DNA of 54,561 nucleotides, the filler included, from Sluysia triapertura (Eukaryota), in the NCBI GenBank assembly GCA_046118255.1. It is 4 parts of 4 records of this genome, joined end to end, with 100 filler letters (N's around TTAATTAATTAA, not from the genome) between each part and the next. Parts side by side here need not be neighbours in the genome. Positions count along the whole stretch, not along the records: positions 1 to 12,047 come from JBJNIA010145054.1; 3 more parts are not named here. One strand, written 5' to 3'. Below are positions 2,601 through 48,085 of this stretch, piece after piece. The notes below the pieces were generated by a model. It did no database searches. It had not been told where the DNA came from and saw only the letters and a list, made by a program, of their open reading frames with translations. Each line of letters begins with the position of its first letter. Positions within the stretch are counted from its first letter, which is position 1. The position numbers and the translations under genes were made by a program.

Positions 2601-4399
2601 TACCTCCATTTACTTTCATGGTTTCTACTTCACACCACTTTGTAAGAAAGAAAAACCTTACTCAACGTATTGGAATTCAATTCAGAAAAAGCTTTTTCAA
2701 CAGCATGGTTCAATGTAATGTTCTTGGTTAAAACATCATATAGAAAAAGTGTTTTCATAATGACATTTGAATGAGTTAATTTTTGAAAGTGCAACCTATG
2801 AAAAGAATACTTGCATGTTAATATATGGGATGGTCACAAGAACAAATCTCAAATGTAGCAGTGTTTCAAATGGATCTAATGTTTCAGACTGTTCCACTGT
2901 GAATAAAAACTTTTTTTGTCTTCATCAATGTACCAGAAAAGGCAATACATTAAAAAGTCTGCCAAATACAACAAAATATTACATAATTTGCTGATTGTAT
3001 AGGTAAAATTGTGTTTTCCGAAAAGCGTTAACTAAACTGAACGAAATAATCAATAAAAAAGAGTTATGTTTTAAAGTGGATAAATTTAATTTCTGCAAAC
3101 TTACCGTTTTCCTTTCGCATCTTTGTACACCTTTTGTTGAATTTGTTTCTTTATCGTATTATCATCAATGTAAGTCATTGACTTTTGAGATATAAATCCA
3201 AGTTCCTGAAAAATTGAATTAACTCTTTCAATACGATTTTTTTATTTTAATAATTCGTGTAATATTTATAGCACAAAATATTTATTAACAAATATTTAAA
3301 TAAATGATCATATTATTTATTGATTATTGCAAAATAATAATTGGGACACATTGTCCCAATAGTATTGGTGAGTGAGTCGTATGTGTCTCAACAGGATTTA
3401 AAAAGACGATAGTAGGTTTTATTATATTTTTTAATTGTTAATAGATTACAAAGTTTTAATTTTTAAAAGAAAGTTAGCCAGAATTTTTATCATTGTTACA
3501 TTGAAATTCTTAACATTTAATTTGATTTTATAAACAAAATCTTTAGGCTTAATACCTTTAACAAACATTAACAAAATTTATAGCAAACAAATTAACCCAA
3601 TAAACAAATGTTTTTTATTATAGAACAATAAAAACGAAACAAAAAATGTTAAAAATAAACGTTCATAAAACGATTAATATAAAATTGTATCTCACGCACT
3701 CACAATGCTCTCTCATACGATAAAAAAGGAACACTGTCCATAGATACTTTATGACCTAAATCAATACAATTTTTATACTTAACAGTATTATTATAATTAT
3801 GCCACTGTCTATTATACATTATAACTTGTAAAACATACATGAAAATTGATTGATTAAAATTATTAAAGAAAAATAACAATGTAAATAAGTATACTATAAA
3901 TTTCAAAATAAATTTCTAGAATCAAATTAGTAATCCGACCAATAGACAATTTTAGAATAAGATACATCACTTCTACTATAATGAATGCTATATAATAAAT
4001 ACAAATCTGTATTTACAAGAAAAAAATAGTGAATTCTATGAAATCTAAACCATATGATGATGAAATGCACGCATACAATGAATGAAATTGAAAAAGAAAC
4101 CATTTATAATAGAGCAAGTTTGAATCATTTAACTTGTGTGTTCGATGCGCATAAAATTCATGCCGCTCAGAAGCAATAACTTTATTAACATACATTTACC
4201 AATATCGATTATTTTTGAAAGGGTTTTAATTAATATTAATTAATATATTAATAAGTATTATGAAATTATTATATAAGTAATTTTAATTTTTGAAATTATT
4301 TTCTAAATTTAACCAAATTTTCTTTTAATTAATGTTTTGACTTTTCGTATAATAATTGTTAAATTTATAAAATGGCATAATTTTGCTTCAGTTAATTGT

Positions 4400-4752
4400 A
4401 GATCTAAATATATCTAACAAATATAAAAACAATAATAATAGATATACGAGAAACAATAAATAAACATATATATACGAAAAGAAAACAAATGAATAATAGC
4501 AATCGTAACAATGATAACAACACTGGTCATAACAATAATTATAGCATTATTGTAATAATTTAGTATTATTATGACGATAGTTATTATTATTGCGATAATA
4601 ATTATAATAATAATTGCACAATAGTAGTAATTATAAATTATTGATTGCATTTATGTTTTGAATGTATCGAATAACTTGTCTAGCAATTTGTTAAGAAGTG
4701 TTGATTTATGATGAAATGTGCTTGTGATGTGTAGATTTAGAGTTATTATTTT
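4400..4752 (-). repeat. Dispersed repeat 'module X' (CA-rich coding-like head, TAA-rich tract, pyrimidine tract)
   Basis: Minus-strand AACTCTAAATCTACACATCACAA is identical to the sequence at ~39475 (+) and the alignment continues. Reads TLNLHIT...LLNKLLDKLFDTFKT. Confidence 0.75.
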
Positions 4753-5619
4753 CTTTATTATTACTATTACTATCATTACTATTTTCTTTATTATTACTAC
4801 TTTTGGTCTTTCTGTAACTTTAGTCAAAATATAATGATTCATTTTTAATGCACGCACACCCACAGAAAACAAACAAAAATCGAATCATTGTAAAATATAA
4901 AATAATTACTATTCTTATTAAATGTTCAACCAAATATTAATTATCACCTATTAAATAGTATTACATCAACCAATTAGAATGAGTAAAAATCACAATAAAA
5001 TGATTATTGCAGAAAACTTGTATATAAGTATTACCAGAATAAGTAGTACTTTCTTTGTGTTGAAAATATTAAAAAAAAGTGAAAAAACAATTATCAAAAA
5101 TTCGTTGGTGGTTTAAATTGAATTTGAAAAATATGAACAAAAATTTAATATGATAGAAATTCTGAGTAGATAAACTAAGTGATTTTTCATGATAAATCAA
5201 TCTTTTTAAATTAATAATTCATAAATTAAAATGAATAATTAAATGTTTAATAAACACTGATTTTTAAAATTAAATTATTTACGTCAGAAATATTTTCATA
5301 AAATAATATAAATTAATAATATTTTTAAATCATAAAAAATTATTTTAAATTATTAAGTTATTTTAAAATTTGACAAATAAATAAATATTTTTTAAATCAA
5401 TACTTCGAAATGTATATAGGAGTAGAAAGAATTGTAAGGATTTTGTTATGATTTTAAGTTTTCCATAATTGCTGGTCTTAGAAAATTTATCAAAATTTAT
5501 CAAATGTAAAACATTATATTTAACTTTTTTATTGTTAATTAATTTTAAATAACAAAAATTAATAAAATAAAAATTGATTTTAATAACTTTATTCTTTATT
5601 ACATAAAAGTGTCTATAGA

Positions 5620-6781
5620 GTTAAATTTTTCCAAGACATCTCTTCTGACCATGTTCAGAATCTTAACATCTGAAATAAAAATCATGGATAAATAAGTTTT
5701 ATTATAAAATTTGTAATTGTTTACCTCGCTTGTAGTATCATCGTTGTTCCTTTATATTTGATCATCAGTTAATTGGACGTTAACTGATGATAGTTCCAAT
5801 CTAGTGTTCTGTGACAAAGACGAATCACCGCACAATATTGCATCTTCTAGTTGATTAATGTTGTGAGCATAGCTGCAAGTGATCCCGTACTTCAAACACA
5901 ATCCATTTAGATCGGCTGGGTAAGTACACATCATTCTTTTTGGCTTGTTTGGTTTATAATTAACTTCACGAAGATCCTTGTAATCATGACAGTTCGCCGA
6001 ATCATTACATTTTTTAAAACCATTGCACACTTTTCTATTTAATTCATGTATTAGATTTGAATTAAAATGGTAAGATCGACTTTTAAATTCGATTGCTTTA
6101 ACAGTCATTGATGATACTGAGCTAATAATTCTGTAGCATGATGTATCTTGGAATGATTGATCTTTAATGTAAATATAATCTTTATTTGATTCATGAAATT
6201 TCAATTTTCCGTTATAATTAATTTTGAGTATCATAAATTGATGTTTGTAATTTGTATAGATCTTTACTATCTCACCGGTCTTGAACAGAACTTATCCAAA
6301 GGCATAATTGACTTGATCTTGTAAAATGATTAAGAAAGGCATTACTTGATTTTTTACGATGGTATAGTACTGTAATAGAGACAAGTTTAATTTTATCACT
6401 AATAACAAGACGAATTTCATTTAATGTTTGTTTTCGAGAATTATTTTGACAGCAATCGTCTTGTTGGAAACTAAATTGGTTGTTGATTTCATTAAAAACA
6501 TTTTGTAATTGTCCAAGTAGACTTACGTATACGTGAGGAAATAGCGTTATTTCATTCACTACATTACTAATAGAATTTATTTTGGTAAGAGTTAATTTTG
6601 TACGATCAATACGTGTTTCAGTCATATATTTGCGTAAATATGCTTCACCTCCAGTATAAGCAATATAGAATTCGTTATCAAATATTATATCATCGATTAT
6701 GTTCCTATAAATCACTTCATCAACCGCTTTCGTCAACGCTTTACGTTTAAATTCAAATTGTTGGTTACACATATTAAACAA
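5620..6781 (-). pseudogene. Unkempt-type CCCH zinc-finger family gene, copy 1 (frameshifted)
   Basis: ORFs 6272-6781 and 5752-6234 overlap out of frame at ~6275-6291 (one +1 shift joins them). Finger C-TYPADLNGL-C-LKYGIT-C-SYA-H at 5863-5928. Probable terminal intron 5724-5670 (GTAAAC...TTTCAG). Confidence 0.75.
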
Positions 6782-6944
6782 GTAATAATGATTAAATTTA
6801 TCAAAACGAAAAATTTTTATATTTTTTAATTAATAACTGCGAATTAAAACAATTAATAACAATTACTGGTAAATTTTAGCCAAATCAATGATTTTTATAT
6901 CAGTCTATTAATTAATCTTTGTTTTCTGTAAAAAATAATTGTAA

Positions 6945-7113
6945 TTGGCTGCCCAATCAAAGTGAACATGACCAGTGACACAAGTACGAACTTTTATTGG
7001 GCAGTCAACAAGAGTAGAAAATGAAATAGATGGTCGTGTAATAAGCTGTCATTAGTCGACAGCTGGCAAAATGGTAACAATTGATTTGAAATATCTGTCA
7101 ACTGGTGACAGCT
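6945..7113 (-). promoter_or_regulatory. Upstream element with inverted CCAAT arms and CTGTC/GACAG hairpins
   Basis: TTGGCTGCCCAAT (6945-6957) ... ATTGGGCAGTCAA (6996-7008), then AGCTGTC-n7-GACAGCT and CTGTCA-n5-TGACAG. The same inverted arms lie upstream of copy 2. Confidence 0.55.
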
Positions 7114-7499
7114 AATGGTAATTAAATTTTATAATGAAATATATTGGTGAATAACAAAAATCAGTGGTGAATAACAAAAATTTAGGACAAAAATTGATGA
7201 TAATCGTAAAAATGATAGTGATAAAAATGATAATAATAATAATAATAATAACACAATGTTATTATTATTATTATTAAACTGCATAAACTCTTTCTGAATT
7301 TAACACGACATTTCTTTAATTTTCTTTATATTTCTTGAAATATTTGAAAGCTAGAATTAAAAATGATAGAATTAAGGATAATAACAAGAGCGACAATGTT
7401 ATCGTTATTATTGTTATTAAAATGCATAAAGTCTTAGATTCTTTAAAAATTGTTCATGATCTTACTTTAAATCTTTTTAGATTTCTTAACATATTAGGC

Positions 7500-8087
7500 T
7501 TATGAGAACAAATCAACTTTACAGAATTGTGAATTTGCGATGTTAGGGCTTAAAGATGTAAGATAATGTGTAAGGCTTTTTTTATATAAATCTTAACTGC
7601 TGTTTTCTAGTTTTTTTGTAAATTTTAGATAATTGAACCTAATATTCTAAATGAAATAATGTTTCTAACTGAAAATGTTAATGGATCATGAGTTATAAGG
7701 GTGTAGTTGAGTGTATACAAAGTAGATAAGTTACAGTCTCACTTTTGATAAGTTGGTAAGGTGCTTATAGATGTCTAAAATGTGATTTATTGTCTTAATG
7801 TTTTTAAATAGTGATATATTTATGTGCTGTTGAAAACGAGTTATGAGTTTAAAATGTTCGAATTGATTAGAAGGTGTCAGGTGGATAATTTCGAATGTGG
7901 TTGTAGTTTGATTGTTATGAATATCGAGTAAAATATTTTTGATGAATGTCTTAATGTGAATTGATGGCATTGGATGTCGTTGTGGTTTATATGTTATGAG
8001 ATTGTGGATATAAATTGACTTTAGCGCTTGAATTGTTTTGGTGAATGTAGGAGATAAATATGAGAATGTTAAAATGTTAAAGGACAT
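7500..8087 (-). repeat. Dispersed 'module Y' (CA-skewed coding-like sequence, includes ORF 7731-8087)
   Basis: ATCAATTCACATTAA (minus strand, 7951-7965) is identical to 22288-22302 (+). A similar sequence occupies the same position relative to copy 2 (29160-29700). Confidence 0.6.
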
Positions 8088-8269
8088 GGTTTCATGTATA
8101 ATGTGTTGATTTAGCTTGATATTGTTTTATATTAATTTTTGAATATGAATTATAGATTTTGTAGTATTATGAAAAATGATTTTTATAAAATTTGATAATA
8201 GTGAAAGGTTGACTACCACAGTAACGATAATACACAAGAGATTTATAATAATATAATAATAATAAAACA

Positions 8270-8410
8270 GATTTAGACACTTGTGAAACTATTATGACTG
8301 TGTTTATGTTTTGATGTATTGTAGTTTTTTTAATAACTCGTTTATGGAATATATGTTGATTTATGTTGAAGTTTGTTTGTGATTGTTATGAGTTGATTTA
8401 TAATTCATCG
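8270..8410 (-). repeat. Module X, partial copy
   Basis: Minus-strand AAACACAGTCATAAT is shared with the copy at ~39555; CATAAATCAACA is shared with the 4.7-kb copy. Confidence 0.6.
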
Positions 8411-9900
8411 TTTAATTTCAATTTTAGTTGATTTTGCGTACAAACTTTATTGAGTTCTTAAAATAACTAAATAATAAATTTACAAACATGTTATTTAACA
8501 AATAATTCTTGTTCATTTTTTAAAATTCATCATTACTTATTTTCACGATATATTTAAGTTTTAATTTAAATGATAGAGCTCAAGATTAACTCATAAATTA
8601 TCTGAAGAAATAAATCCATAACGAAATTTTGAATTCGAAAGTTAATTTGAACTCAATTATGTAAACTCTCATTTTATGCACACATCACTATATTGAAATT
8701 TGCCTACTAAGTGATGTGTCATATACAATTTCTATCCACTGACTCAATTATACTATGATAACATCCAGGAAAAATCGATAATTTTTTCTATTGTAATACA
8801 CGCCATCAAACAATTAATGCATAATGTGTGTGTTCATAAAAATATTTTGTAGAAATAACCCAATATTTCTTTGCAAACATCATCACTTTCTTCCTCAAAT
8901 TATTAGAAAAAACGCCATGTTACTTTTATTTCTTTTATTCAACAATTTTTTACAATTTAATGTTGGAAATTAATACAATCTCATAAGATTTTGTAACGGT
9001 AAGCTACTTTTATATTTCATTAATTTAAATATTAAAATTTTTATTGATGTTTTATGGTGGCAGATTAAATGTTTATTTACTTTAATATTAGTTTTGGTAA
9101 TTTTAAACAACTGAAATATTATTATTTTAAATTATTTAACAAAGAAATAATTCCAGTTACAAATTCAATTGTTTAACATTATCAACAATTGTTATTAATT
9201 TCTAGTTATGTTGTATAATTATGAATTAAATATATATATTTGTCTTAAATCGTAAATAAAAGGTACTAGAAATTGGTAAATATATTTTCTTAAGATAAAC
9301 TTTCAATAAATACAATTAAATAATTTTTCGTATAAATTTATGTAATTAATTTTTCCATTTTAGCTATATTTTAAGGCTTAAATATGTAATCAAATATGAT
9401 TTCATATAATTTAACAAACGGTATGAATTTATTTTTGACCTCAGGCGTGAATAGTGAAGTTTTAAAAATATAAATAATTTAACAAAAGTAAAATTTGCAA
9501 ATTCAAATATGTCAATTCTTTTAAAGTTTTCTCAGAAATATTGTTAGAAAAGTAAACTTTTTAGAATTTAAGTTTTAAGTCTTCATTTTTTAATATTATG
9601 ATTAATTGATTGTTGTAACTATTAAGCTTTGTATAACTCTATGTTGTCAAGACGTATAACCGTTATTTTTCACTAAATACATCTCTGTCTCTGTGTCTCG
9701 AAAAGACAATTCAATAAATCATTGTAGTCGGTGAAGTTTTCAAAGTTGTTTTGTCAGTCTGATTTAACTACATTGGTATCACAGTTGTTGTCCGGTTTAT
9801 ATTTGTTCAAATATATCAAATTTGTATACATACATATATAAGTACATACATAAACACAAACATATAATAATCCTCAAAATAACGATCTTTACTGACGACG

Positions 9901-10592
9901 ATGCTATTAACAAAGGATCAACACCATGAATCTAAAGAAGTTATCGTTGAATCCACCAATGAAAAAGAAAGCAGTATTTCGAAAGAAGAGAAAAAAGTAA
10001 CAGAAAAAACGGAAATAACAGAAAATGACTTAAATTCAATTGATAACAATGATAACAATAGTAATACTAATCATACCAGTAATGTTACGAAGATACAAGT
10101 AAAACAAAACCAACGTGGAGGTTTGGTTATTTTAATTTTTTTAAATTTTATTGCAGAAGAAAGAAAATTGTTTATTGGTATGTTAAGCAAACAACAGAAT
10201 GAAGAGGACGTTAAAGAAATGTTTAAGCAATTTGGTAATATTGAAGAATGTACAATATTACGTGATCAAAGTGGTAATAGTAAAGGTTATATTAATATCA
10301 TTTTTAATTAACGATTATCTATTTATTATAGTAATTATTTTACTATATTATTTTTATAGGATGTGCATTTATTAAATTTTCTACTCGTTCTGAAGCTTAT
10401 ACTGCAATTGGTGCAATGCATGGCAGTTTAACAATACCCGGTGCTTCATCAAGTCTTGTAGTTAAATTTGCAGATACAGAAAAAGAACGACAGACACGAA
10501 AATTGCAACAATTTATTAATCCACTTGGAATTTTAAATCCTGGATTGGCGTTATCAGCATTAGGCGGTGCTGCTTATACACAGTACTTAGAA
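9901..10592 (+). CDS. CELF: CELF3-6 / Bruno-like RNA-binding protein, partial (exons 9901-10120, 10157-10285, 10360-10592)
   Basis: Spliced product [51 protein letters not shown]...[24 protein letters not shown] is the CELF3-6 RRM2 signature. GT-AG introns of 36 and 74 nt. The last donor is tentative and RRM3 is not seen before the contig end. Confidence 0.93.
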
Positions 10593-11983
10593 GTTAGTAA
10601 TAGAAATACTTCAGATTGATTTATAATTTAATTTATAAATAAATATTAAATTCATAAAATCAAAATAATAATGTAAGGGTGTAAAAGTTATTATATTTTT
10701 TGTATGTTTAAAAATAATTGTAAAAATTATTAAAATTAGTATTATTTAAAAAATTATAATAATAATTAAATTAAAATTAATAATTATTTTAAAAGTAATC
10801 TAAAAAGAATTTAAGGAATGTTCCAGAACAAGGAAGTGTTTTAACGAAGTAATTTTAATATACTTGTCTTTACGCGTATATAAAGAAAAACAAAGGGGTA
10901 CAGACGCCATTGTTATTACGTCATTCATATGAAAATTTCAAATTGAAGAAGCCACAATTATTGCAACAGACGCCATTAATTCAAAATTATCAATTCCATC
11001 TATCGCTTTTGGTTATTCGCTGTGCTCCAGAAGTCAACAAGTTAATCGATCATCCAGCAGCATGTATCCCGCGTATACGATAAGAGGGATTACAACTTCA
11101 ACTTTTCCGTAATCTGATCAATCAAATTAGGCACTTCCTGATCTTGAACATTAATTTATTAATTGAATCAGTAAGTTTGTTTCATGCACATTGAAAACTC
11201 GCTAGAGTTAAAATGTTTACGTAAAATATCTAATTTTCGGTTGGTCATTAAGATCAACCATAAAATCATTTTAAAATCTAAAATCACCGACTTTTAGTTG
11301 GCCCTTAAGGTCAGTTATAAAATCTTTATCAATAGGTAGAGTCTTCTGGCTAGACCTTTTGTTATAAGTAATTTAATTTTGTTATTATACTTGTTACCAT
11401 TTAAATTACGTTATTTGTGTTTTCATTTTCATAAATTTATAGTTGTTTTATTTTAATTTATTAAGTTTATTAAATTTGTAGTATAATAAAATTTAAAAAT
11501 TTTTGAGTTTTAGCTTATTGTAACTTTTACGTTAAATTTGTAACAGAAGTCGAATTTACTTTCTTTATTTTGCAGGAAATTTAAAATTAGATAAATTTTT
11601 CATTGGAGGCACTTTGATTACAGTGTAAACTCATTAATTCTTCAAAGGATTAAAAAACAAACTTTTATTGATAGTTTATATAAAATAACACATGCAAACT
11701 CGTAAAATCCACGATTATTGTAGTAAGACTTGATAAATAGTTGCAGTTTTAAAGGTAAAAGAGTAACACATCTTTATACAAATCTTATTAACCGTATTCT
11801 TACGTAGACTTAAATACAGACATCCGCGTTGGTCGTGGCTATCTTTATAAGTTATTCAGTTATCTGTTGACATAAATGACAATTTTCTTAAGTCAAAGTA
11901 AGGAGTATTTTTATATAGTTAATCTTTAAAATTGTTTTCACTTAATTTTACAGGTACGCCATTAGTAAGTAGTATAATAAGTA

Positions 11984-11984
<1 letters not shown>

Positions 11985-12045
<61 letters not shown>

Positions 12046-12047
12046 TA
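11985..12047. repeat. (AAT)n microsatellite at contig end
   Basis: Directly visible. Confidence 0.95.
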
Positions 12048-12147
12048 NNNNNNNNNNNNNNNNNNNNNNNNNNNNNNNNNNNNNNNNNNNNTTAATTAAT
12101 TAANNNNNNNNNNNNNNNNNNNNNNNNNNNNNNNNNNNNNNNNNNNN
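12048..12147. other. Synthetic contig linker (44N-TTAATTAATTAA-44N)
   Basis: Six-frame stop spacer, exactly 100 bp; the identical layout occurs three times. Confidence 0.95.
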
Positions 12148-12217
12148 CATAAGTTATTAGCCAATTAAGTTAATATTATAAAATGGGACCAAAAAAGGTT
12201 TGGTAGTGAAAGGGTTA
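12148..12217. mobile_element. Probable piggyBac-type element end
   Basis: GGTAGTGAAAGGG-TTAA matches the TTAA-CCCTT terminus typical of piggyBac. The partner end is not present (contig boundary). Confidence 0.4.
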
Positions 12218-13482
12218 AAAAACACATGTTTAAAAATAATGATTGAAAGCTAAGCTAATATATAAGTAATTTTTAAAAAGATTTTGCACACACCAAAATA
12301 TTATAATTTAAAGATTCAACAATTTCGATTCAAGTTTTTTTATTCGGAAAATTGTGTACAAGTTCTCTCCTTGGGAATTCTTAATTCTACGAAGGTTTTA
12401 ATCGATCAAAATTTTATACAGATTCTTTTCTTGGAGACGCTGCTTTGTGGAAATCATTTTTAAAGAAAAATTATTAATCGATCATAAGTAAGCTAATTTT
12501 TGATAAGTGCATTTATAAAATTTGCATCAACTTATTACGTAAAATCATTTTAAATTGACCCAAGAATTAATCCTGGGTCAAAATTTTTATCAAACTTTAC
12601 CAATTTGTTTATTTATTTATCATAATTCGTTATTTTATTTTGATTAGACTTTAAAAAATTGAGTGTACATTTGTTCATTATTATTTTGTTTATTAATAAA
12701 GTCTTTAAATTTTTTAAAAAGGAAAAAAGTCTCGATTATATAAAAAAAAGATATTGCAATATTACTATAAGTGGTTACAAAGTAAAGTAAAATTGTTAAA
12801 AATACTGTTAAGTTCTTTAACGTTGCCATAAGATTATAAAATACAGTTGGTATTAATTCAAATTAAGTTGCCTAAGGGTGCAATAAGGATATAAAATACA
12901 GTTGATATTAGATAAAGCTTATTATAGAAAATACCAAAAGAAGTAAATTATAAGCAAGTAGTTTTAAAGTGATAAAAGCATTTGATCATAAAAGGATTAT
13001 TTCAGATTAGCTATTTGTTAAGTTCATAAACAGATTTAACCCTCTCATTGTATTCATTTTAAGAGTTAAGTCTGTTTGTGCATCGTAGAGATTCAAATCC
13101 TGTGAGCACGTCCTTTTCAAGATAAACCCGTTACACAGGCGAACCCATTTTACAGCAACTGTTATAATTGTTTTTCGTAAGAAAGGAAACACAGAAAACA
13201 AAAATATCATTTGCATAAAACAGTTAATACCTCACTAAAGCATTGTGTATGATTGACCTCCACTATTTCCATTTAACGTTCCACTGACAAGAGTAGGCCC
13301 TTAATTGAGTAAGATCAATATCGTAAGGGACTCACAAATTTGCAACAAAATAAAAGCAAAGTTATATATTTTCAACATAAAGATATTGTTATTTTTAGAC
13401 TTTATTCTCTTTTGTTAAATATATTTGACAAAATATAAATTTTTAAATAACCTACTCTGTATAGTTTACATAACACTTAATC

Positions 13483-14698
13483 TCACAACAGCAATATTTT
13501 ACACACTAAAAGCTTTAACATATATTCCTTAATCATTTTAACCTCAGGTAATAATTCCATTGATGCACGAGCTTCTAAGGAGTTTAATGAATCTGTAGCA
13601 CGATTTACAATACCATTGAATAATGAGTAATATGCAATTGACGCCATTTCTAAATAAACAGGAACAGAAAACGTTGGAAGCCGCTTTAATATAATATTTG
13701 CAGCCTTACGACCTGATCTTGGTGGAATTAAAAGCTAAATTGGTTAATATATAATACATGAATATAAAATTATCAAACTTGATGTTTCTCTGGGTGAACT
13801 AACGAAATTAATTTCAACATGGTTAAAAGACTATTACTAGACATATGACAAATATTATCATAATAAATTCTTAAAAAATATAAAATTAAATATGAACGAT
13901 CAACAGATGTGATATGATTAATAATTTTTTTGGAACATAAACTTGTTTCAGAAACTTTGTGAAAAGCGTCAGGAACACCAAATTTTAAAGTCGGTAATAC
14001 ATTATTTTGGGGTAAGACACCTAGTGAATTAAAATATGAATATGGAATGAACACTGAAAAATTAGAACTTGAATAGATTGTATTTTCAACATTAATTTGC
14101 AAATCATTATTTTCAACTTTATTGTATAAAATAATTTCTGCATCCGAATTATAAAGTGAGAGCAAACTTGCTTCAATAATATCTGCAATAGAATATCCAT
14201 AATGATAATCATGAGACTTTTTTGAATCATTGAATGGAGAAATTGAAGATGACCGCCGACGAGATCTTTGACGCTTTGGAACATCTGATTCGCTGTGAGA
14301 TTGTACTTAATAAATAAATTTCAAAATAAAATTACCTAAAATTTAAAATAATACTTACAGCAGATACTAAAATATGCCAACATCATTGATGGCAGTATAT
14401 CCACAGCGACTAAAATCAATTTATTATCCGAAGAACAAAATAATTTATTTATATATGTACAAACATGATGAAGTGAATCGCCATACACTTTATCTTCCAA
14501 ACGATTATATACAGAATAAATAGATTCAAGAAATATGTTGTTAATTGAAGAGAAAATAGAACCATCTGATTCATATTCCAATAAAATTTGCGAAGCTTTA
14601 CTTGAATCTGCAGTCAAATGAATTTTTTCGTTAAATTTAACTAATTCATCTATTAAATTTAACCATGCTGTCAATTTAGAATTCAATAACTTTTTCAT
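13483..14698 (-). CDS. FAM126: Hyccin / FAM126 family (PI4KA complex subunit); exons 14698-14359, 14305-13779, 13734-13483
   Basis: LHHVCTYINKLFCS..ILPSMMLAY; IEASLLSLYN; RSYLILYFLRIYY..MSSNSL; YYSLFNG..ATDSLNSLEARASMELLPE follow the hyccin motif order. Two short in-phase GT-AG introns; the exact 3' end is uncertain. Confidence 0.85.
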
Positions 14699-15179
14699 AT
14701 TTTCGCATGTACTTATAATAATAAAAATTCAAAAAATGAATAATTTTATAATGCGAAACAAGGTAAAAATAAAATTCAGCTTTTAATCCACATTAAATGT
14801 TTCCCAGTTTAAGGTAGTTTTAAATTAAAACAAATTTAAAGTAAGAGAATCAAGTTAATTTTTCTAAGGAATCAAATTTATATCATAAAACGGTTCATAA
14901 AATCGTTGTATTCAAGATTTAATATTAAAAATACTATTATATACGAGACAAAATTAAAAAATATTTTGATTCGAAAAGATGGTTTTCAAAGATTTAAAGT
15001 TAAGAAAAATTAGTGTATTCTTTAACATTTCGTAATTATGTAGAAATCAAATACATGGAAATTTTAAAATGAGAAAATCCCATATAAATAAAAAAACTGA
15101 AATTGCTCAAAAAGTCTGAAAAGCTTTAAAAATTGATTAAATTAAATTCCATATTCCATAATGATCAGAATAAAATTAT

Positions 15180-16330
15180 GGAAAATGCTATTTTGGATCG
15201 AGATTGAATGGATATTTTTTCCTAAATGTTGAGATGGTGTAGTAATTGGTGTTATAATAAAAATCAAATAGGCAAGAAAATAGTTGACATTCATTTTAAA
15301 ATTTGGAATTAAATCTTACTGACATAAATGAATCTTTATATTTAGAAATTATATATAAACCACCAAATAGTTCAATTAAATAAGTTTTAGGTGAATTTTT
15401 TGATTATTTTGGTAAAAACAAAGAAGTTCAGTAACAGAAGATTTTAAATGAAGAATATAATATAAGTAAAAAGTTCGTCGAATGAACCGTTTAAAATTTA
15501 AACTAACTAATATGGAAAAATATTAGATTTATTAATAACTAATATTGATAATATATTATTATTGATATAAAAGTGAATGAACTATTAGATATATCTTATC
15601 ATTATTTATTTGTGTTTGGTATAAAAAGATTAATTACAGAAATTTATCAAAAGTTGAAGAGTAAATAAAGCCTTGTTTATGTAGATGCATTAAGTAAATT
15701 ATGTAAAAGAACATTTTATATGCAAGCACTTTAAATGTAAAAATATTATAAGAAATCTTGCTTAAGTCAGAGATTATTTAGTTACGAAGAATAAAACAAT
15801 TTAAAGAAAATTTATAAAGCAAAGAATATATAAATTCTAATAAAAACAATGAAAATATTTACTAAATCATTTAAGTTGAATGTTAAGAATATTTATAAAT
15901 TATTTGGTTGAAAAAAAATCATTTACTTAAAGATAAAATTACTTCAAACTTCTAAATTTATCACCAAAAGTCGAAAAATTACAAAATATTAATAAATCAA
16001 ATATTTAATTAGACATACAAAAGTATAAAATGAGTTTGAATTTAAAACATTAATGATGATTTAATAAATACTACGTTGGAAATGTCAAGAACCTATTCTA
16101 TTGAAAAGTGTTAGCCACTCATTGCATATCTTTATTGTAAATTCTAAAATTCCTTAACAACGAAATATTTCCTCATCTGAAATATGGCGATGCATTATTT
16201 TTTTACTTAATGTCAAATATATCATTCTTATCAAAATTGATCGAAGAAACGTTTCGCCATAATTAGACGAAAAATAAACAATTAAAAATAGAATACAATA
16301 ACGGTATACTACAACGGCGATTTTTAGAAA
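15180..16330 (+). mobile_element. Degenerate LINE (CR1/L2-like) APE endonuclease and RT remnants
   Basis: IIYKPPNSS (~15348-15374, YRPP motif) and LMSNISFLSKLIEE (~16207-16248, cf. RPISNLxFLSKxxE). Many stops and frameshifts. Confidence 0.6.
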
Positions 16331-21726: not shown

Positions 21727-22139
21727 TTAAATGAGAAAAATAGATACGAAATCATCTATTAAATTAAATTAAATAAAACGTACTATTATTTTTAACTATA
21801 GAAAATCTTTATTAATTATCATTATATTAGATTATTAGATTATTTAAGCACTACATAATTTTGTTTAAAATGTAAAAAGCCAAATTATGTTTATTTTAAC
21901 AAAAACATTTATTGCACAAATTTTAAGCTAAAAAATTTTTAAAAAAATTTATCTGATTTAACTGAAATTAAATTAAAATTATATTATATTTAAAAGTTTT
22001 CGATACGACTGTAATGTTTGCTTTGTGCTTTTTAACCTTATATTGATTTTGTGTGGTCCAATTCATTACTTCTAATTTTATTACAAAATGAGCATTTTAT
22101 AAAATTTCAAGTCATAACATAATTAAAAAAATTCCTAGT

Positions 22140-24597: not shown

Positions 24598-27494
24598 ACC
24601 ATCCAAATCCATTTATCCGTAAACATAAGTGGGTCTTGTTCTCTCTACAATGGATCTTTGTCTCTACTTTGTTTTTATTTCTCCCTCTAATACTTTTCTT
24701 TTTAACTCTATTTTTCTGTGTGTTACAGAATTCAAATAATGGTTACGTTGTCTTTACACACTGACACACTAACACGCAATTCTCAATGTCCGCCTGAAAA
24801 ATCACAATAGGAGAGTGATTAAACAGTTAGTTGAGGTGTAAATTATTGACTTCATACAATATGCATATAGAAAGAGAAAAATAGAGATTAATCGATTTTA
24901 TTCGGTTTAAATTTTATTTGATTATATATTATAATATAACTTAGTAATAATAATTGAATTTTAATTATAAAATTATTTTTTTAATTCAAAACTTAATCGA
25001 AATTGTAATATTTAAATAGTTAAATATTTTTTAAAATAATTAAAAGAAAAGTAAATAGCAGTAGAAATCGATCTTTAAGATAATCGTATTATCTTAAAAT
25101 AATGTAACGTTAGAAAAACATAAAAGCATTTAAACAAACTCATTTATTTATTTATTGTCAAAAAAATAATTAATCAAGATATCTTTGGAAAAGTTTTATT
25201 TTCAATATTTCTAAATGTTAGTACTTTTTAAGGATTTTTTGGTTAAATTGCTCAGAAAGAAATATTTAAATAATTGTGAACAAAAAAGAAGTATTAATTA
25301 TAGGTATTTCCTGATTATACACAACCACTATTTGTAAGAACACTGTTTTCTTCATATGCTTTATTTGATTTTTTTAAATTTTCTCGGAATTACTAATGGT
25401 TTTCCTTTTGCATTTACATCTTGATGAATTACATCTTATCATACTTCCATTTCCGAAGTGCTTTTCGTCGTAAGCCGTTAACATCTGCTTCGAATACTTC
25501 TGAACATATGGGCCAATAAAGCCAATTATCTAATTATACTATGAATACTGTTTGAAAATGTATAATAAAGCAAATTATCTTTAAATAATCTTTATTTAAT
25601 ATAAGACTTTTTAAATGTTACTAAGCTAACATAAAGCTAACAAAAATTTCAATTTCTTTCATCTTACTCATATAAATAAACATATTACGATGTTCAATAA
25701 TTATAATAAACGATATTTTTAATTTATTAAATATCTTGATATCACGCTTATATGAATAAGAATTTTTGTATAAATAGCTAATTAAATAAGTATTAAAAAA
25801 CATTTAAGATTTTTACAATATTTCTGAGTTAATATTTAATTAATTGTCGATAATTAATCAAAGTAAGCATAATTTGGACACACAATAAAGCAAAAGAAAT
25901 TTAATATTGATTAAGTCATTACTAACCATTTTGTTCACAAATCTTTGCTTTTTGGGGAATACTTGTCTATTTCGATATTAAGTATCCGTTAGTTTTATCT
26001 ATCTATCTATCTATTTAAAACTTTCCAGGCAATTTAATACATTGCTGTTAAATTAATATTTAATTATATATTTTTATCTCTTTTGTTATTTATTCATTAA
26101 TAATATTTATTATAATAATATACTGTCATACATTTATTAAGAAAACGTTTAAAGACCTTCGAACATTTATGTATTGTTCATGTGTCCGCCATATGGTCAT
26201 AAGACATCAACTATAAATTTATTTTGCCTTGTATGAAATAAGAAATTAATCTCATAAACATTAAACAAATAATAGAAAATTGTACATATATTTTGTAACG
26301 AAATTTATGATATATACTATTTACTTAAAATTATAAAAATTAAATAGAATACATTGTAAATATCACGTTCAAATATTTTCAAAAACGAGGAAAATTTTTA
26401 TGCATAAAAATAAGAAGATTTTAAATCAATCAAAATCACTAAAATTTTGAATAGGAATATACATACTACAATTGATTACCAATATTTCCGAATCTGAAAA
26501 TAGTAGTTACAATCAGAATTCTGAATTTGAAGATACAAACTATAATTTATTAATCGATTATCAAAAATTTTAATTTTTAATATACAATTGAGTGGTATTT
26601 ATTGTATTCTCAGCCTAAAGATTAAAATAATTAAATTTACTGTCATTGTTGTGGTGTCACGCCTATCGTTAATAATTTTGTCATCCTTAACATTTATAAA
26701 ATTTCATACTCAACCTATTCACTTCACTATTACTTTCCTACATTAACATAAACTACAAATAATGCTCTCCAAACTCTAAACCTCATACTAAAATCATTTA
26801 TGTCAATATCATAGTTCCCTTCCCTCTGATTATCATCCACACCATCATTATCATCACTTTCAGTGTTATTTTTACCATTTTATTATTCTTATAATTTTTA
26901 CCAGGCATATTAATTTTATTATCCTACCGTTTTTATTATTTTTCAAAATTACAAAGAATTTTAAAAGTTAACGATTGTTTTAATATTGCTTTTTATATAT
27001 TGTTAAATAAACAATTAAATGTACAATTTTTATATATAGTTTTTATATAAATACATTTAAAAATTATTATAAAGACGTACATTTGTATTAATACCTTGGT
27101 TAAAATTTATGAACAATATTTCCAAGAAAAATATAGTTAAATAATTAAATTTGATTTGAATTTCAATTTATGAAGTTTTTATCTTTGAATATATAAAATG
27201 GATATAACAAACAAAAACCGAATACCACACTTGCTAATTCAGCACACTCCAATTGGTCCACATTGTCGTTTTCAAATGATTCCTGCTAAATGATTAGCGT
27301 TTATAAGTTTAAAATTTAAATTTAAATGATATTTATTAATTACTTTAATGAAATCAATTATTATAAATATGCAATTTAGGAATACTTTGTAATCACAATT
27401 TATATACATTTTTATTTCATCATTACAAAGATAACAATCAAGATTAACATATAATAACTTTATTTTTTAAAATAAACAACATTTAAACATAAAT

Positions 27495-28648
27495 TTAAAA
27501 TTTTATGTTTAAATGTTTATTGTCTTCTGAGTGCGCCTTACCACCCGTTTTACTTGTTTCCTAAATGATTTAAAATAAAATGAATAAAGGAATTGGAAAA
27601 TCATAGTTTTATAAAATAAACAAATATTAATTACTTTATAATTCCAGCCATTCTTGTAATGGATTGGATCTGAGCTAAATTCTCTTATTACGTTGCTAAT
27701 TCTACCAAAATAATTAATTGAATTTGAGTCTAAGCCAAAGTCGTTTTTTAATTCAGCAACATTATGTGCATATGTACATTTCTTACCATATCTGGAACAC
27801 TCTGCATTCAGTATTGTGATATAAGGGTAAATAATGATTTTAACATAACAAGAACGATTGTTATTTGCTCGAACAACTTTATATGTTGGAAATTTGTTAC
27901 TCTTGTGAATGGTGTTGACAAATTGACTAAATTGTTCGTTCTAACCGTATCGATGTCTACTATAAATTCAATGCATCTTTGTAGACAGAAATGTCAGGAT
28001 TGTTGTCACAACATTTGGTGCAAATACATTTGTTCAGGAGCATGGATCATTTTTGAATTCACATTAAAAATACTAAAATTATCGTGTGAATTATTACTTC
28101 TTTCGATAAAATATATTGCTATTTGATTTTCTTTAACAATCTCATGGAGAGGATGAGCCTCTTCTTGTTTCTTGCACGTACATGGCAAACGCAAACATTA
28201 ATTCTTTATCCCTTAGATGGTTATCGACTTGAATTAATTGTGAATTATAAGTTGCATTCTCTCGATTTAATCTAATATTTTCAATGTATGGATGTAAAAT
28301 GTACAAATCAAAACTGTAATTATTTAAACTATAATTATTAACAATCACTATATAATTTACACTTTGCAGCTTCAAATCTCGAATTAAAAGTTTCAATTTA
28401 CTTATATTTGTCAAAAGTACACAATGCGTAATTAAGCCTAAATTGCTTTGAAAACGATGCTTGATCCAGTTTATTCTCGAATATAAAGCTTTGTCAAGTA
28501 ATACAATAGCTAGATCAAAGCCTGATTTGTAAAAATTCAAATCAATTGGATCATTTTCAATATTGATGTCTACTTGATCAACAGATAATTCATTTTGATC
28601 TTTAAGAAAATCATCTATATAAGCAATCCAATTTTTCTTCATTTTCAA
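27495..28648 (-). pseudogene. Unkempt-type CCCH family gene, copy 2 (frameshifts and stops)
   Basis: ORFs 28142-28648 and 28006-28194, then ECSRYGKKCTYAHNVAEL (finger core 27764-27799, first Cys lost), NYFGRISNVIR and terminal intron 27634-27561. Confidence 0.7.
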
Positions 28649-28778
28649 ATATTCTTTTCGATTACTCAGGTAAAAATCAAATTAAATAGCGATTTTATTA
28701 ATACTGTTGTTCTTAAATTAGATACCAAATAAATTATTTATTTATAAAATTTCATGATGATATTTTTGTTCTGTATCT

Positions 28779-28927
28779 GAGTGGCTATCCAATCAAAACG
28801 CCTATAGCTGCTGTTGAAAATAGTTCCAATTGGGCAGTCACTCAAACACTGTACAAACAACAACGAGCCAGCACAAACAGAAATACAATCTTGGCACTTA
28901 CAATAAACATCTCTCAGTGATTGACAG
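28779..28927 (-). promoter_or_regulatory. Inverted CCAAT element upstream of copy 2, plus TGATTGACAG
   Basis: GAGTGGCTATCCAAT (28779-28793) ... ATTGGGCAGTCACTC (28829-28843); TGATTGACAG at 28918-28927. Confidence 0.55.
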
Positions 28928-29029: not shown

Positions 29030-29700
29030 TTGAAAAATTAAAAATAAAGATAATAATAATAATGTTATTATTATTATTATAAAATACATAAATTTCTTTA
29101 AAAAATTACATGAACCTGCTGATATTTAAATTTCTTTTTATTTCTAGACATATTTGAAATTATTTAAAGATTTCTATCATCTTTGAAAGATTAGAAGGCT
29201 AAATGTTGAGGTTGTGGACTTAGTATTTTAAATTCAGGTTACGCATTTTGGATAAAATTTGAAGATGTAATTGTGGTTTTAATGTTATTAATTAATATGT
29301 TAAATGTTTTAAGTGAAATTTTAAATGCTATTTAATGGTTTTATCTGAAGATAAGTTTGAGTATTGAGAACTTATGACTTAAGTGTTTTGAGATAATACA
29401 TAAATGTTTTATGTGAATTTTTAAATATACATTGATGTTTTGAATGAAAGTAATATTTGGATGTTAGAAGATTGTGACTTAAAAATGCAATGAAAAAAGT
29501 GTGGTTTAGAGGGTATAAGGAAAATAAATTATAGTCTAGATTTTGGTACATTCTAAAAGGTAATTGTGTGATAATGAAAAATATGATTCTGATTATATTG
29601 ATATGAAGCTATGTGAAAATATGTTTCAAAGAGTTTTTTTAATGTGCTTTGCAGATTTTGAAAGTGAATGTGATTTTGTTGTATTTAAAAGTAAAAAAAA
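29030..29700 (-). repeat. TAA tract + module Y, homologous to 7220-8090
   Basis: AATGTTATTATTATTATTAT.AA...CATAAA and TTTCTT..TATTTCT...ATATTTGAAA are shared with 7255-7350. Minus-strand AATTCACATAAAACATTTAT vs AATTCACATTAAGACATTCAT in copy 1. Confidence 0.65.
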
Positions 29701-29711
29701 TTAAATAGAAT

Positions 29712-30402
29712 TTGTTAAAAGTAATAGGTTGGCCACCACAATTAGATGAATTGTATAGTTTGAAAACATTGGAAGTAATTAATCCAATGCCACTTGAACA
29801 ATATGATTTTGAGTTACCAAAATCTTTTGACATTTTAAAAGGTATTTCCTTTTCAAGAAGTAGATTTTCAGTGTTTAACAAACATAATATGAATACAAAT
29901 GTCAATAAGGTGTCCACCTTTATAGCCGTTTTAATCAACAAATTAACGAACTTCAAGTTGAAAGTATCCGAAATATTACATTTTATAAAGGAAAACCAGA
30001 TTTGAGTTATTAATAAAGCAGTTGTTTTCTATGATGAGACAATACATAATAATACTGATGTAATTAAGATAGAAACGGTAAATTATGTATATGTATCATT
30101 TTTATATATTTCCACTTATGATGGGTCTAGAACTCCGGAGATGAGAGCCAGTCTTGGAGACATACGACTTAATGTTGTTATCGAAGGAGATTTCATGTTG
30201 GTTCCAAATTATCTCATAAACAAGAGAAATTCCGAAGTGTTTGCGTTCTTGCAGTTTCTGTTTCAGATGAAGCCTTCATCGTGCCTCAGATGATTCCAAA
30301 TATAGTCAGGTTGCACCTATTGACTATTTCCGAGGGAAGTTTCCAATGCAGTTTGAAAACTTCTCTATTCATGTTCTTGACTACCTTCCTAGTGGTATTT
30401 AA
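29712..30402 (+). pseudogene. Disabled ORF homologous to the Gypsy-associated ORF at 49320-49801
   Basis: The frame stays open past one TGA (30003) to 30293, then shifts to KFPMQFENFSIHVLDYLPSGI*. The N- and C-terminal parts align with the 49.3-49.8 kb ORF. Confidence 0.6.
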
Positions 30403-30459
30403 AAAACTAATTATTTTAAATTACTTAAAGACATTGATTATGTCTATTCGTAACAAATA

Positions 30460-39473: not shown

Positions 39474-39830
39474 GAACTCTAAATCTACACATCACAAATC
39501 GACACTTCATACATAAATAAAATGCTAAACAAATTACACGATACCTTCTAAACAAAACACAGTCATAATTTATAATTATCATAAATTTATAGTTATTGTT
39601 ATAATAATTACTTACACAATAATTACTCTTATAATAATTTTCATATTATAGTAATAATTTTCACAATAATAATAATAACAACATTTCTGTATTATAATTT
39701 TTTAATTATTATGATAACTGTTTTGTCACAATTACTTTCTTATTTATTTCCCATCTTTTTTGTATGTATGTATGCATGTTTATTTTTGTGCATATTTTAT
39801 TGTTCCTCTTATCCCATCACAGTGCATAAT
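39474..39830 (+). repeat. Module X copy
   Basis: 23-bp identity with the 4.7-kb copy; reads TLNLHIT / MLNKLHDTF. Confidence 0.75.
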
Positions 39831-46519: not shown

Positions 46520-46880
46520 TCATCACATAAAATCCATCACATTCCATCACATAAAAACACTCCACATGTACACAGACTATTAAACAAACTACTAAACTCA
46601 TTTAAGAACAAACACGACCATCACATCTAATTATCATGAACTATCGCTATTATTATTACGATTCAGATCATATTAAAATATATGTAAAAATTATAGTCAT
46701 TATTGTTATATAATATAAATACCAAATAATAACTTTTATAATAATTTTCATGATAAAATTTCATAATAAATTTCAACAATTCTGTATTAATAAACATAAT
46801 AACTACATAATTGTTATCATTATTATTATTTCTTTTATCCTTATTATCAATCTATCTCTCTGTTTGTTTTAATTTTTTTA
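46520..46880 (+). repeat. Module X copy (diverged)
   Basis: Reads HRLLNKLLNSFKNKH; CT.TTATAATAATTTTCAT is shared with ~39627; ends in a pyrimidine tract. Confidence 0.6.
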
Positions 46881-46884
46881 TACG

Positions 46885-48085
46885 ACACCATATATTTGAT
46901 CCTAATTTGTCTTCATCTTTACTAAATTCTATTAAACAAGCCCAGATAAATGCCGTTGAACGAAATCAAGGAGATAGTTTAAATAATCAAAATAATGGTA
47001 CAACTACATCACAAAACAATGTATCATCCCCATCTATAATATCTAATGAAGATGAATTTAATAAATTTTGAATCAAAACATTGTGAAATATGAGAAACAA
47101 AATGCAAAAAGAACTTTATGAGTGCAGTTTTAAGAACAGAAATAAATTGTGTAATGATATGTCAATATTAACAAATAATTTAAGATGTTCGGATTTAACT
47201 GATCACATAAGGGATGATGATCAAGAAATAACTGAATTGTGTAGTAGATCATCCTCTTGTGGACATTACTTTGATTCACCAAGAATGGATGTTTAATAAA
47301 TCATTTTAATGTGGATAAAATCGTTTCGATCTTAAATGGCCGTAGAAAAGATACACTTAAAACCTCATCAACGACAGCTTCATCCAAAAATGTTCCAATT
47401 GTATTGAATTCAAATAATTCCAATAAGCATCTTATCAGTTCTCTTTCATATTCCAACTTATCACCAAATACCAATGCTCCCACGTCGATTATGTCAGGAC
47501 CGTGACCAATATTTGTCTCACAGCAACAACAAATTAAGAAACCTTCACAATATATTGTGTTATTATCAAATGCACCATCTCCTGGAACAAACAGTTCCTT
47601 CAGTTCAGTAAGCACCAGTTCAGTAAGTAAGGTAACAATTCAACACGACTTATTCACCATTCTTCTGCTGCATTACTACATAGCAACAGTGCACCTTTAC
47701 TTCAGTTTCAGACTCAGCCACAGTCACCTATAGTAACTCACCACCAGCTCAAGTTAAAATAGTCAGTCTTCAGTCTAACAATCATAGCACGGTACCACCT
47801 GCATTGCGCATATCATCAATTTCTCGTAATTCCTCGGTCAACTGTATTAGTTCGACTTTTGCAAAGAATACACCAAATACAAGTACTACCAACAATATTC
47901 CAGTTGTAAGAATGGTGCCTGCTCAAAGTGTACGAACTACTGGATTACCGCGTTTTGTTCAATCAGCCGTAAGTCCCGTATCATCTACTAACATTACCCA
48001 TGTCTTTAATAATAAAATTAATAATTCTAATAACAATACCGCGTCTAATCGAAATATTTATGAAGAAGTAATAGAAATTGACTAA
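46885..48085 (+). pseudogene. Intronless disabled gene: Cys/acidic N-terminal part and S/T/N/P/Q-rich disordered C-terminus
   Basis: ORFs 46811, 47090, 47311 and 47804 are linked by in-frame TGA stops and about three frameshifts without introns (~400 aa in total). Family not recognised. Confidence 0.6.

Follow-up and report, generated by a model that had tools for sequence, protein, structure and literature searches.

Does a CCCH zinc-finger gene spread through this AT-rich eukaryotic genome as part of a mobile element, or do repeats simply lie beside it? The question arises from the window, by which we mean the whole stretch of 54,561 nucleotides that was analysed. There, the order of module Y, a TAA tract, an inverted CCAAT element and the CCCH gene, reported in a first-pass annotation, is the same at 8.1–5.6 kb (locus 1) and at 29.7–27.5 kb (locus 2). 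The annotation was also right that homology extends more than 1 kb upstream of the gene, as the two loci are collinear across ~1.2 kb of non-coding DNA.

The repeat leader and its abundance

The TAA tract is a perfect hairpin at locus 1 (Table 1), and the unit that ends Y is the best conserved part between the loci (74% over 156 bp; 7207–7349 against 29006–29159). This 150 bp end is in tandem at locus 1 only, locus 2 having a single terminal unit. No shuffle out of 200 matched the between-locus score of the 75 bp that lead up to the TAA tract, and the score was reached by 3/300 shuffles for the 5′ part of Y, 1/300 for its 3′ part, 1/300 for the spacer and 0/300 for the CCAAT element. Stricter 2/−3 scoring removed the between-locus significance of Y, the spacer and the CCAAT element (19–107 of 200 shuffles), so that homology in the body of Y is modest. 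The inverted element starts with an exact 12-mer at both loci (7007–6996 and 28840–28829), 235 and 198 bp before the ATG; its outer arms at locus 2 differ from those at locus 1 and still pair. It is probably the promoter of the gene. The two halves of the gene DNA did not align between loci above shuffles (155/300 and 41/300), and neither did the flanks outside the cassette (258/300).

The description of Y as ORF-like stands in that its 131-codon ORF at locus 1 is longer than those of 996 out of 1000 shuffles. A coding role was not confirmed, in that this ORF had no Pfam, PHROG or homologue match, with only unnamed prokaryotic clusters returned by Atlas, and that the Y of locus 2 holds no matching ORF (79/1000 shuffles).

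Table 1. Features of the two cassettes and of related repeats in the window
Feature	Position	Strand	Remarks
Locus 1, X core	8270..8410	-	abundant repeat, C/A-rich strand; adjoins Y here, absent at locus 2
Locus 1, Y body	7500..8270	-	very abundant C/A-rich repeat; 131-codon ORF (8126-7734); summed depth 3572-8415
Locus 1, Y terminal unit	7200..7500	-	two tandem copies (~150 bp each); tandem pair 0/200 shuffles
Locus 1, TAA tract	7234..7276	.	perfect (TAA)n/(TTA)n hairpin, 20-bp stem, 3-base loop; z -6.4
Locus 1, inverted CCAAT element	6944..7007	-	two opposed CCAAT boxes within inverted repeat; z -3.0; variant rows in 12-13 contigs
Locus 1, ORF1	6272..6772	-	166 codons, overlaps next frame; longest ORF, 0/1000 shuffles
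Locus 1, ORF2	5752..6291	-	different frame from ORF1; in-frame stop 5754-5752
Locus 1, candidate GT-AG intron	5670..5724	-	unproven
Locus 1, 13-mer with AATAAA poly(A) signal	5581..5593	-	common to locus 2 (27464-27452)
Low-copy gap between cassette and downstream X	4936..5169	.	depth 45; locus-specific contig 4771-5474
Separate repeat with X core	4020..4742	-	X core, AT tract, T-rich tract, very abundant segment 4400-4230, lower-copy tail to ~4020
Locus 2, Y homologue	29085..29720	-	with single terminal unit
Locus 2, TAA/TTA hairpin	29050..29080	.	14-bp stem, 3-base loop; z -2.2
Locus 2, inverted CCAAT element	28778..28844	-	z -1.2, not significant alone
Locus 2, CCCH gene	27452..28642	-	several frame changes and stops; poly(A) word present
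Locus 2, candidate intron	27634-27561		
Locus 2, hairpin	27517-27478		16 bp
Stand-alone X copy	39474..39830	+	with AT and T-rich tracts
Stand-alone X copy	46520..46920	+	more diverged

Amplification was assessed from the short contigs of one run, which is probably the window's own source and hence not independent. Summed contig depth, which is no copy number and was read in tiers against a unique contig depth of 14 as the single-copy reference, was ~8300 over 7744–8211, ~3150 over 7276–7743, ~280 over 6808–7275 and ~450 over 5638–6807, with 45 over 4936–5169 and 20–55 over 8446–8913 outside or after the cassette. An AT tract at 10552–10785 scored 10318, so AT-rich bins are inflated. The step from Y level to gene level coincides with the TAA hairpin, Y standing at about ten times what follows it, and relatives of Y and X are far more numerous than those of gene and promoter, whose summed depth is 20–30 times single copy. 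Independently of depth, variant rows were backed by up to 64 contigs in Y, 12–14 in the CCAAT region and 7–20 across gene and promoter; three contigs match the gene at ~85%, and among the contig pieces listed none links Y with the gene in a further copy. The proposed amplification is supported, as gene and upstream CCAAT region have many 80–90% identical relatives in this run; given these, confinement to a single duplication that yielded the two window copies is an insufficient account. We regard a multicopy cassette tied to Y as the likely architecture.

The CCCH gene

At locus 1, ORF1 found no homologue in word-index searches or in a full HMMER scan, and its structure model (pLDDT 38) was uninformative. 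ORF2 encodes a degenerate first finger (~6042–5974) and a CCCH finger of TIS11/Unkempt type (5940–5854), complete with lead-in and following helix, and similarity to locus 2 runs on beyond its in-frame stop. Pfam zf-CCCH_UNK matched with E 2.3e-8 at locus 1, where the finger exceeds the Pfam cut-off (34.2 against 31.1 bits), and with E 0.009 at locus 2, where the finger is without its first cysteine. The locus 1 finger also matches PDB chains of TTP (E 4.5e-5), Unkempt (3.2e-4) and BRF2 (3.2e-4). This finger points to a cytoplasmic mRNA-binding regulator of the TIS11/Unkempt type as the most likely identity of the protein; its finger is like those of TIS11/tristetraprolin and Unkempt, but the cassette protein has just one that is intact. 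Outside the finger, three word-index searches, one including the Y ORF, returned no relative.

Finger plus tail share 31% identity between the loci (0/1000 shuffles), which are deeply diverged. The N-terminal ORFs, both of 166 codons, do not align, so homology is established for the finger half only. Both gene copies in the window are broken. Among 11 reading-frame differences drawn from the best-supported 40 of 728 rows, six were silent against an expected 24% (P = 0.029). The poly(A) word occurs at only these two places in the window, and an equally long shared word arose in 84 of 2000 shuffles. A third CCCH pseudogene, at 45150–44850, has a TAA tract and is without Y or CCAAT element.

The first-pass annotation had argued from a retained intron that the unit moves as DNA. 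Candidate GT–AG introns do lie at the same place in both genes and are 84–86% AT, against 84–89% for host introns; an alternative candidate, where the frame shifts near 6290, reaches just 70% AT. Both of the former are open in frame (a chance of ~19% each), their lengths differ modulo 3 and the protein alignment of the two loci extends into them, which makes the argument weak. The intron is unproven, and an RNA route is possible even with one.

Module X and searches for class features

Module X, previously taken as part or terminus of the cassette, is not a terminus but either a further abundant repeat or a head that Y can have or lack: none lies beside locus 2, two copies stand alone, and low-copy DNA separates the gene from the X downstream. 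Three cores, at 4742–4630(−), 8410–8270(−) and 39475–39580(+), align in all three pairs under both scorings (0/200 shuffles). A fourth, weaker one at ~46520–46920(+) gave 0/60, 1/60 and 0/60 against them with composition-aware scoring, and was significant in only one of six tests in another shuffle series. The whole of X folds no better than shuffles. The left edge of the repeated DNA is near 8410–8445 (summed depth 2041 at 8212–8445, then 55 and 20 beyond), where the unique contig 8371–10691 matches the window with 0 differences; the right end of the cassette is somewhere in 5170–5580. The downstream X belongs to a separate repeat, which starts directly after a TAA-like microsatellite and is bridged internally by contig records at 4021–4296, 4219–4472 and 4336–4599, with rows in 44–95 contigs.

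No transposase, RT or TIR had been recognised in the cassette, and this was upheld; ribozyme and TSD were likewise not found. Canonical Helitrons have a Rep/helicase, a 5′ TC, a 3′ GC-rich hairpin with CTRR and an A/T target, whilst Helentrons and HINEs have subterminal inverted repeats of 12–15 bp and a T-rich target without duplication. A profile of four Rep proteins (the two scanned with Pfam were both confirmed) had no match below E 1 in 732 six-frame pieces of the window, and a by-eye Rep candidate at 4195–4016 was rejected with a score within shuffles (34–177 of 500). No TC start was found, X starting without A|TC; no hairpin stronger than −3.8 kcal/mol precedes any of the 13 CTRR sites in 5600–3900 of these old copies, and no subterminal inverted repeats were identified. 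For a Pack-MULE, TIR or MITE structure, the left and right arms of X were compared in 12 tests, the best of which gave 13/300 shuffles. A 9-mer direct repeat at 8408 and ~5222 was discarded as a TSD, an equally long one being present in another tested region. Among the 24 ORFs scanned, those close to the cassette encode neither RT nor endonuclease; the one RT seen is a Gypsy-type remnant 45 kb away, at 52.8–53.6 kb, and X and Y do not match its tested flank. Rfam gave no hammerhead and X and Y hold no core motif, an absence compatible with Naiads, which occur without hammerheads. Doublets of TTAGGG and TTAGG, the two telomere-repeat types checked, were not found, nor were paired LTRs or gag-pol at the cassette, nor by eye a primer-binding site after the hairpin. 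A virus-like element gained no support, sequence links to viral contigs not being found. The suggested Helitron or Pack-type nature survives as the best analogy, with no defining feature found.

Possible routes of spread

Our preferred reading, held tentatively, is that the cassette may descend from an abundant non-coding element that picked up a gene by end-bypass transduction of the Helitron/Helentron type. Most Y copies would stop at the TAA hairpin; an old copy would have read through this end and taken promoter and CCCH gene along, and would later have been multiplied in trans by an enzyme whose gene lies elsewhere. Subfamilies would have split while keeping the cis-signals (Y end, hairpin, CCAAT repeat and poly(A) word), the protein diverging under some purifying selection. 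The tandem second Y end at locus 1 fits repeated end bypass, and the alignment of non-coding DNA where gene DNA does not align, with a conservation peak at the Y end, supports transduction, as do the depth tiers and the share of silent differences. According to PMC4067079 and PMC6431247, Helentron subfamilies are defined by 3′ ends bearing a palindrome, some copies have microsatellites, no target site is altered, and missed terminators may capture host DNA. The cassette is like the HINE/DINE-1 elements of these accounts in its abundant non-coding repeat, apparently conserved 3′ end, candidate terminal palindrome, microsatellites and lack of a detected TSD, and like HINE/Helitron transduction in the lower-copy amplification of adjoining gene DNA. 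It is unlike the HINEs described there in its purely AT hairpin and in that no subterminal inverted repeats or Rep/helicase partner were found; also against this reading, two similar TAA/TTA hairpins, at 36143 and 36415, are without Y. Unlike the Helitron fragments in these descriptions, the cargo is apparently an entire gene that has its promoter and shows signs of selection, and PMC6431247 calls whole-gene capture by Helitrons exceptionally rare.

The greater likeness of Y than of the gene between loci, the silent-site excess amid many broken copies and the unalignable N-terminal halves would also be accounted for by a fast-evolving birth-and-death family of CCCH genes, copied to new sites with Y as landing pad, whether through gene conversion, DNA circles or non-allelic recombination. 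We consider this repeat-facilitated expansion, in which no transposase acts on the gene, somewhat unlikely; Tf LTRs and 5S rDNA have been proposed to play such a part for wtf genes. In PMC9562144 wtf genes provide the precedent, with tens of fast-diverging copies, many pseudogenes and linkage to a dispersed repeat; they are, however, often repeat-flanked on both sides and are poison-antidote drivers, whereas the cassette has a one-sided repeat, a CCCH product and no evident drive. No Y lies downstream at either locus, and the near-equal spacing of Y end, hairpin and promoter suggests one old junction, which argues against recombination. An ordinary host gene family that multiplied through segmental or tandem duplication, passively carrying X and Y as repeats that had merely inserted nearby, would suit the independence of X from the gene, the repeat-rich region and the third pseudogene. 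It is nevertheless very unlikely, as a passive passenger is expected to be more diverged than coding DNA and is less so, and the flanks beyond the cassette are unique and unaligned between loci.

Under retro-mobilisation, Y would be where a LINE or Penelope-like element with a TAA tail or TAA target ends on its 3′ side, the gene moving by 3′ transduction or in trans on RNA that may keep introns. The TAA tract ending Y, the pseudo-LTR-like partial tandem and the X right after a microsatellite agree with this. PMC8557442 describes partial tandems, a bias towards microsatellites and retained introns in Penelope-like elements, and the Naiads and Terminons treated there and in PMC6431247 share with the cassette a partial terminal tandem (at locus 1), microsatellites, possible intron retention and accessory or captured ORFs. 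The route is unlikely all the same: unlike Naiads and Terminons, the cassette yielded no RT, GIY-YIG, hammerhead or telomeric repeat, the scanned ORFs near it held no endonuclease, the Y ORF is unmatched, no tail follows the gene, and depth is greater in the 5′ part of Y than at the TAA tract, whereas 5′ truncation would give the reverse. CCCH ORFs may occur in some Terminons. A large LTR retrotransposon or endogenous virus with X-Y as its LTR and the CCCH gene as accessory ORF is highly improbable. The ~10:1 excess of Y over interior would then reflect solo LTRs, the Gypsy-type remnant is at hand, and giant Gypsy elements bear accessory ORFs (PMC6431247), but no second X-Y closes either locus, the gene is followed by neither gag nor pol, low-copy DNA precedes the downstream X, and neither a primer-binding site nor a match to the remnant's flank was seen.

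Finally, the CCCH gene might belong by origin to a selfish element of a class not yet described and not be captured host cargo, which we judge quite unlikely. The conserved C/A-rich leader and AT hairpin would then be the mobilisation signal, with leader-only derivatives in hundreds of copies, and the RNA-binding protein might protect the element's RNA or bias inheritance, possibly as a product of two frames that overlap, the frame change coming after exactly 166 codons at both loci. Were this so, finding three CCCH pseudogenes that look unrelated within 54 kb would hint at a large superfamily hidden in the genome.

In the literature covered, with most subscription papers outside its scope, no paper linked CCCH genes to such cargo. 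Plain duplication would leave no more than a modestly interesting family of orphan pseudogenes. Whole genes under selection are considered to be rarely captured by transposons, and few systems are known in which repeats seed the spread of a gene family; if an abundant repeat carries the mRNA-binding CCCH gene together with its promoter, and these diversify into subfamilies, the cassette would add a new example of one route or the other.

The repeated cassette and its boundaries

The window carries a genuine orphan CCCH cassette that is multicopy and tied to a repeat. The two minus-strand loci at 8.1-5.6 kb (locus 1) and 29.7-27.5 kb (locus 2) were collinear, bearing out the first-pass annotation in that the order module Y, TAA tract, inverted element and CCCH gene recurs. 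The leaders were compared using composition-aware scoring and local shuffles. Alignment was above chance for the 5' part of Y (3/300 shuffles reaching the observed score), its 3' part (1/300), the spacer (1/300) and the CCAAT element (0/300), and not for the stretch from the CCAAT element to the ATG (32/300), the gene halves (155/300 and 41/300) or the 3' flank (258/300). Under stricter scoring, significance was kept by the end of Y and the TAA tract alone. The homology proposed upstream of the gene is thus real, with its peak at the Y end (74% over 156 bp) and a modest level in the Y body.

What was called the "TAA tract" forms a perfect hairpin, of a type also present apart from Y; its stem measures 20 bp at locus 1 and is shorter, 14 bp, at locus 2. 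The terminal 150-bp unit of Y occurs twice at locus 1. The inverted element, which lies 235 bp (locus 1) and 198 bp (locus 2) 5' of the ATG, contains a pair of CCAAT boxes in opposite orientation; its outer arms are unlike in sequence between the loci, with pairing kept in both. A 13-mer containing a poly(A) signal lies 3' of both genes. In public collections the CCAAT pattern had no viral match and four metagenome matches (43-57% GC, without similarity to the window), which were taken as chance. Among three other C/A-rich skewed segments, only the one at 22050-22350 matched locus-1 Y (0/60 shuffles; one of 40 tests).

Module X is a genuine repeat, dispersed over the window in three clear copies and a fourth, weak one. 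It had been placed on both sides of the unit; since it has no copy at locus 2, occurs by itself at two places and lies downstream only beyond low-copy DNA, X is not a terminus of the cassette. The downstream X is part of a separate repeat, and X as a fold-back MITE was rejected, its self-inverted matches stemming from AT tracts and strand composition. The cassette is read as comprising Y, the hairpin, probable promoter and gene, with a right end somewhere in 5170-5580. None of the listed contigs bridges Y and the gene in a further copy; their linkage is shown by the two window loci.

Coordinates of features in the window and summed contig depth in run X1
Feature	Position (strand)	Summed depth	Remark
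Interval	8446-8913	20-55	
Interval	7744-8211	~8300	
Interval	7276-7743	~3150	
Interval	6808-7275	~280	
Interval	5638-6807	~450	
Interval	4936-5169	45	
Interval	4234-4935	4400-21700	
Repeat with downstream X	4742-4020		~720 bp
Segment behind X	4230-4400 (-)		complex, very abundant; variant rows in 63-95 contigs; no clear second copy in window
Perfect hairpins	5761-5791; 27478-27517		12-bp and 16-bp stems; shortly before/across stop codons of the two genes
C/A-rich skewed segments	22050-22350, 24200-24450, 26600-26950 (+)		
Third CCCH gene	44780-45770 (-)		decayed; several frame changes
RRM gene	9.9-10.6 kb		host gene
Hyccin and CwfJ genes	within window		host genes
tRNA-like sequence	2510-2600, 31817-31862 (+)		Rfam 27.6 bits, slightly below cut-off; partial second copy 87%
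Coding stretch, degenerate	29709-30800 (+)		head-to-head with Y of locus 2
Histidine-phosphatase fragment	45885-46406 (+)		isolated; His_Phos_2 E 1.4e-4; between TAA tract and X copy
Gypsy-type retroelement, decayed	49500-54561 (-)		then more broken coding DNA and 97-codon ORF
Gypsy-type RT remnant	52.8-53.6 kb		RVT_1 E 8e-6 (Pfam); within the retroelement
97-codon ORF	49819-49526 (-)		no Pfam or PHROG match

The CCCH gene and its reading frames

The first frame of the locus 1 gene, ORF1, has 166 codons and overlaps a second (ORF2), in which a degenerate finger is followed by a CCCH finger. Scored against the Unkempt-like family of Pfam, the CCCH finger exceeds the cut-off, and it matches tristetraprolin, Unkempt and BRF2 chains. 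Between the two loci, homology covers the finger region together with the tail (31%, 0/1000 shuffles). Both copies are disrupted by frame changes and stops, locus 2 also lacking one cysteine. ORF1 had no homologue among 1.84 billion representatives, and ORF2 none among longer proteins; Atlas matches to ORF2, all at or below 0.82, are leads only, and single-sequence fold models of both ORFs gave a pLDDT of 38. A three-finger alignment search found no relative. Neither viral contigs nor phages yielded a homologue, and the suggested virus-like element found no support. The third CCCH gene immediately follows a perfect (TAA)15 tract and has the best-kept finger (Pfam E 8e-8); it is without Y or the CCAAT element and shows no similarity to locus 1 beyond the finger.

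In both genes the first ORF is exactly 166 codons long and closes at a TGA with the same surroundings, after which the next frame takes over (6272-6420 and 28142-28165, minus strand); a four-residue word after the stop is common to both loci. A conserved frameshift was considered from these likenesses, but neither ORF1 (180/1000) nor the ORF2 start (675/1000) aligned above shuffles. In run X1, a public sequencing run, the stop opening the second frame was absent from most contigs at the overlap variant row, and of the 12 indels listed (97 in all) none falls in the overlap. The frame change may therefore be shared across the family.

The first-pass annotation also held that an intron was retained. 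Each locus has a GT-AG candidate in the corresponding position, and the two resemble host introns (84-89% AT in the two examined). Both are open in frame, their lengths differ modulo 3 and the protein alignment runs into both, leaving an intron (candidate 5724-5670) unproven; it was skipped by 0/15 contig joints listed of 134.

Copy abundance and genomic setting

Genome-wide statements draw on run X1 alone, compared once with positions 4000-11000. One of its contigs (depth 14) is identical to 8371-10691, which makes the run the probable source of the window itself. A depth step was located at the hairpin. Because summed contig depth is not copy number and AT tracts raise it (10318 at 10552-10785), the gene can only roughly be put at 20-30 times single copy, and X and Y at hundreds. 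Distinct contigs behind variant rows, a firmer measure, numbered 12-14 for the CCAAT region, up to 64 for Y, 35-65 for X and 7-20 for the gene, which upholds its amplification. Three contigs among those listed matched the gene at ~85%. The best 40 of 728 variant rows included 13 in the gene, of which 11 were classified (one in the frame overlap and one past the stop being omitted). Silent differences made up 6/11 of those listed against 24% expected (P 0.029), mild evidence of selection on the reading frames during the spread of copies.

The window is eukaryotic, with 23% GC, and comes probably from an invertebrate animal. Its tRNA-like sequence is a possible tRNA-derived SINE. ORFs of the degenerate coding stretch beside locus 2 exceeded all 1000 shuffles in length; Pfam was blank and PHROG matches were limited to E 0.03-0.1. 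A supposed Penelope endonuclease remnant (50.3-51.2 kb) was a likeness by eye alone, blank in Pfam.

Routes of amplification

A passive neighbour is expected to diverge faster than selected coding DNA. The opposite was observed: likeness between the loci persists at the end of Y, in the hairpin, in the CCAAT repeat and in the poly(A) word, whereas similarity of the gene DNA was lost, which points to these parts as cis-signals of an element with cargo. According to PMC4067079 and PMC6431247, an abundant palindrome-ended non-coding repeat with a rarer gene-extended class is the product of Helitron/Helentron end bypass. By such a bypass the hairpin end would be read through, and rarer copies would extend into the gene. 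We tentatively regard the cassette as a Helitron/Helentron-like transduction of the gene. The Helitron/Pack-type suggestion of the first pass is kept as the closest analogy only: a profile search found no Rep/helicase in the window, canonical Helitron ends were not found, and hairpins of this type also lie apart from Y. Whole-gene capture by Helitrons is also described as rare in PMC6431247. A Rep fragment matched by eye at 4195-4016 was not significant, and a candidate 9-bp target-site duplication was at chance level. Separately, a single bacterial MAG carries eukaryote-type Helitron Rep proteins on four contigs, probably eukaryotic contamination of the bin.

Repeat-seeded recombination, as reported for wtf genes in PMC9562144, is a rather doubtful explanation here, as Y is missing downstream of the gene. 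Penelope/LINE retro-mobilisation would retain introns and create partial tandems (PMC8557442); RT, ribozyme and tail were not found and the depth gradient along Y is opposite to that expected, making it unlikely. A likeness of Y to the C-terminal part of a CR1/L2 LINE or Penelope ORF, seen by eye, was without support in searches. Plain duplication appears improbable, and an LTR element very improbable.

Some Terminons reportedly carry CCCH ORFs. Our literature search, with most subscription papers outside its scope, returned no paper linking CCCH genes to such elements, and CCCH is not mentioned in the accessible text of PMC5408684 or PMC5537684. The CCCH cassette would be a new form of repeat-borne gene amplification.
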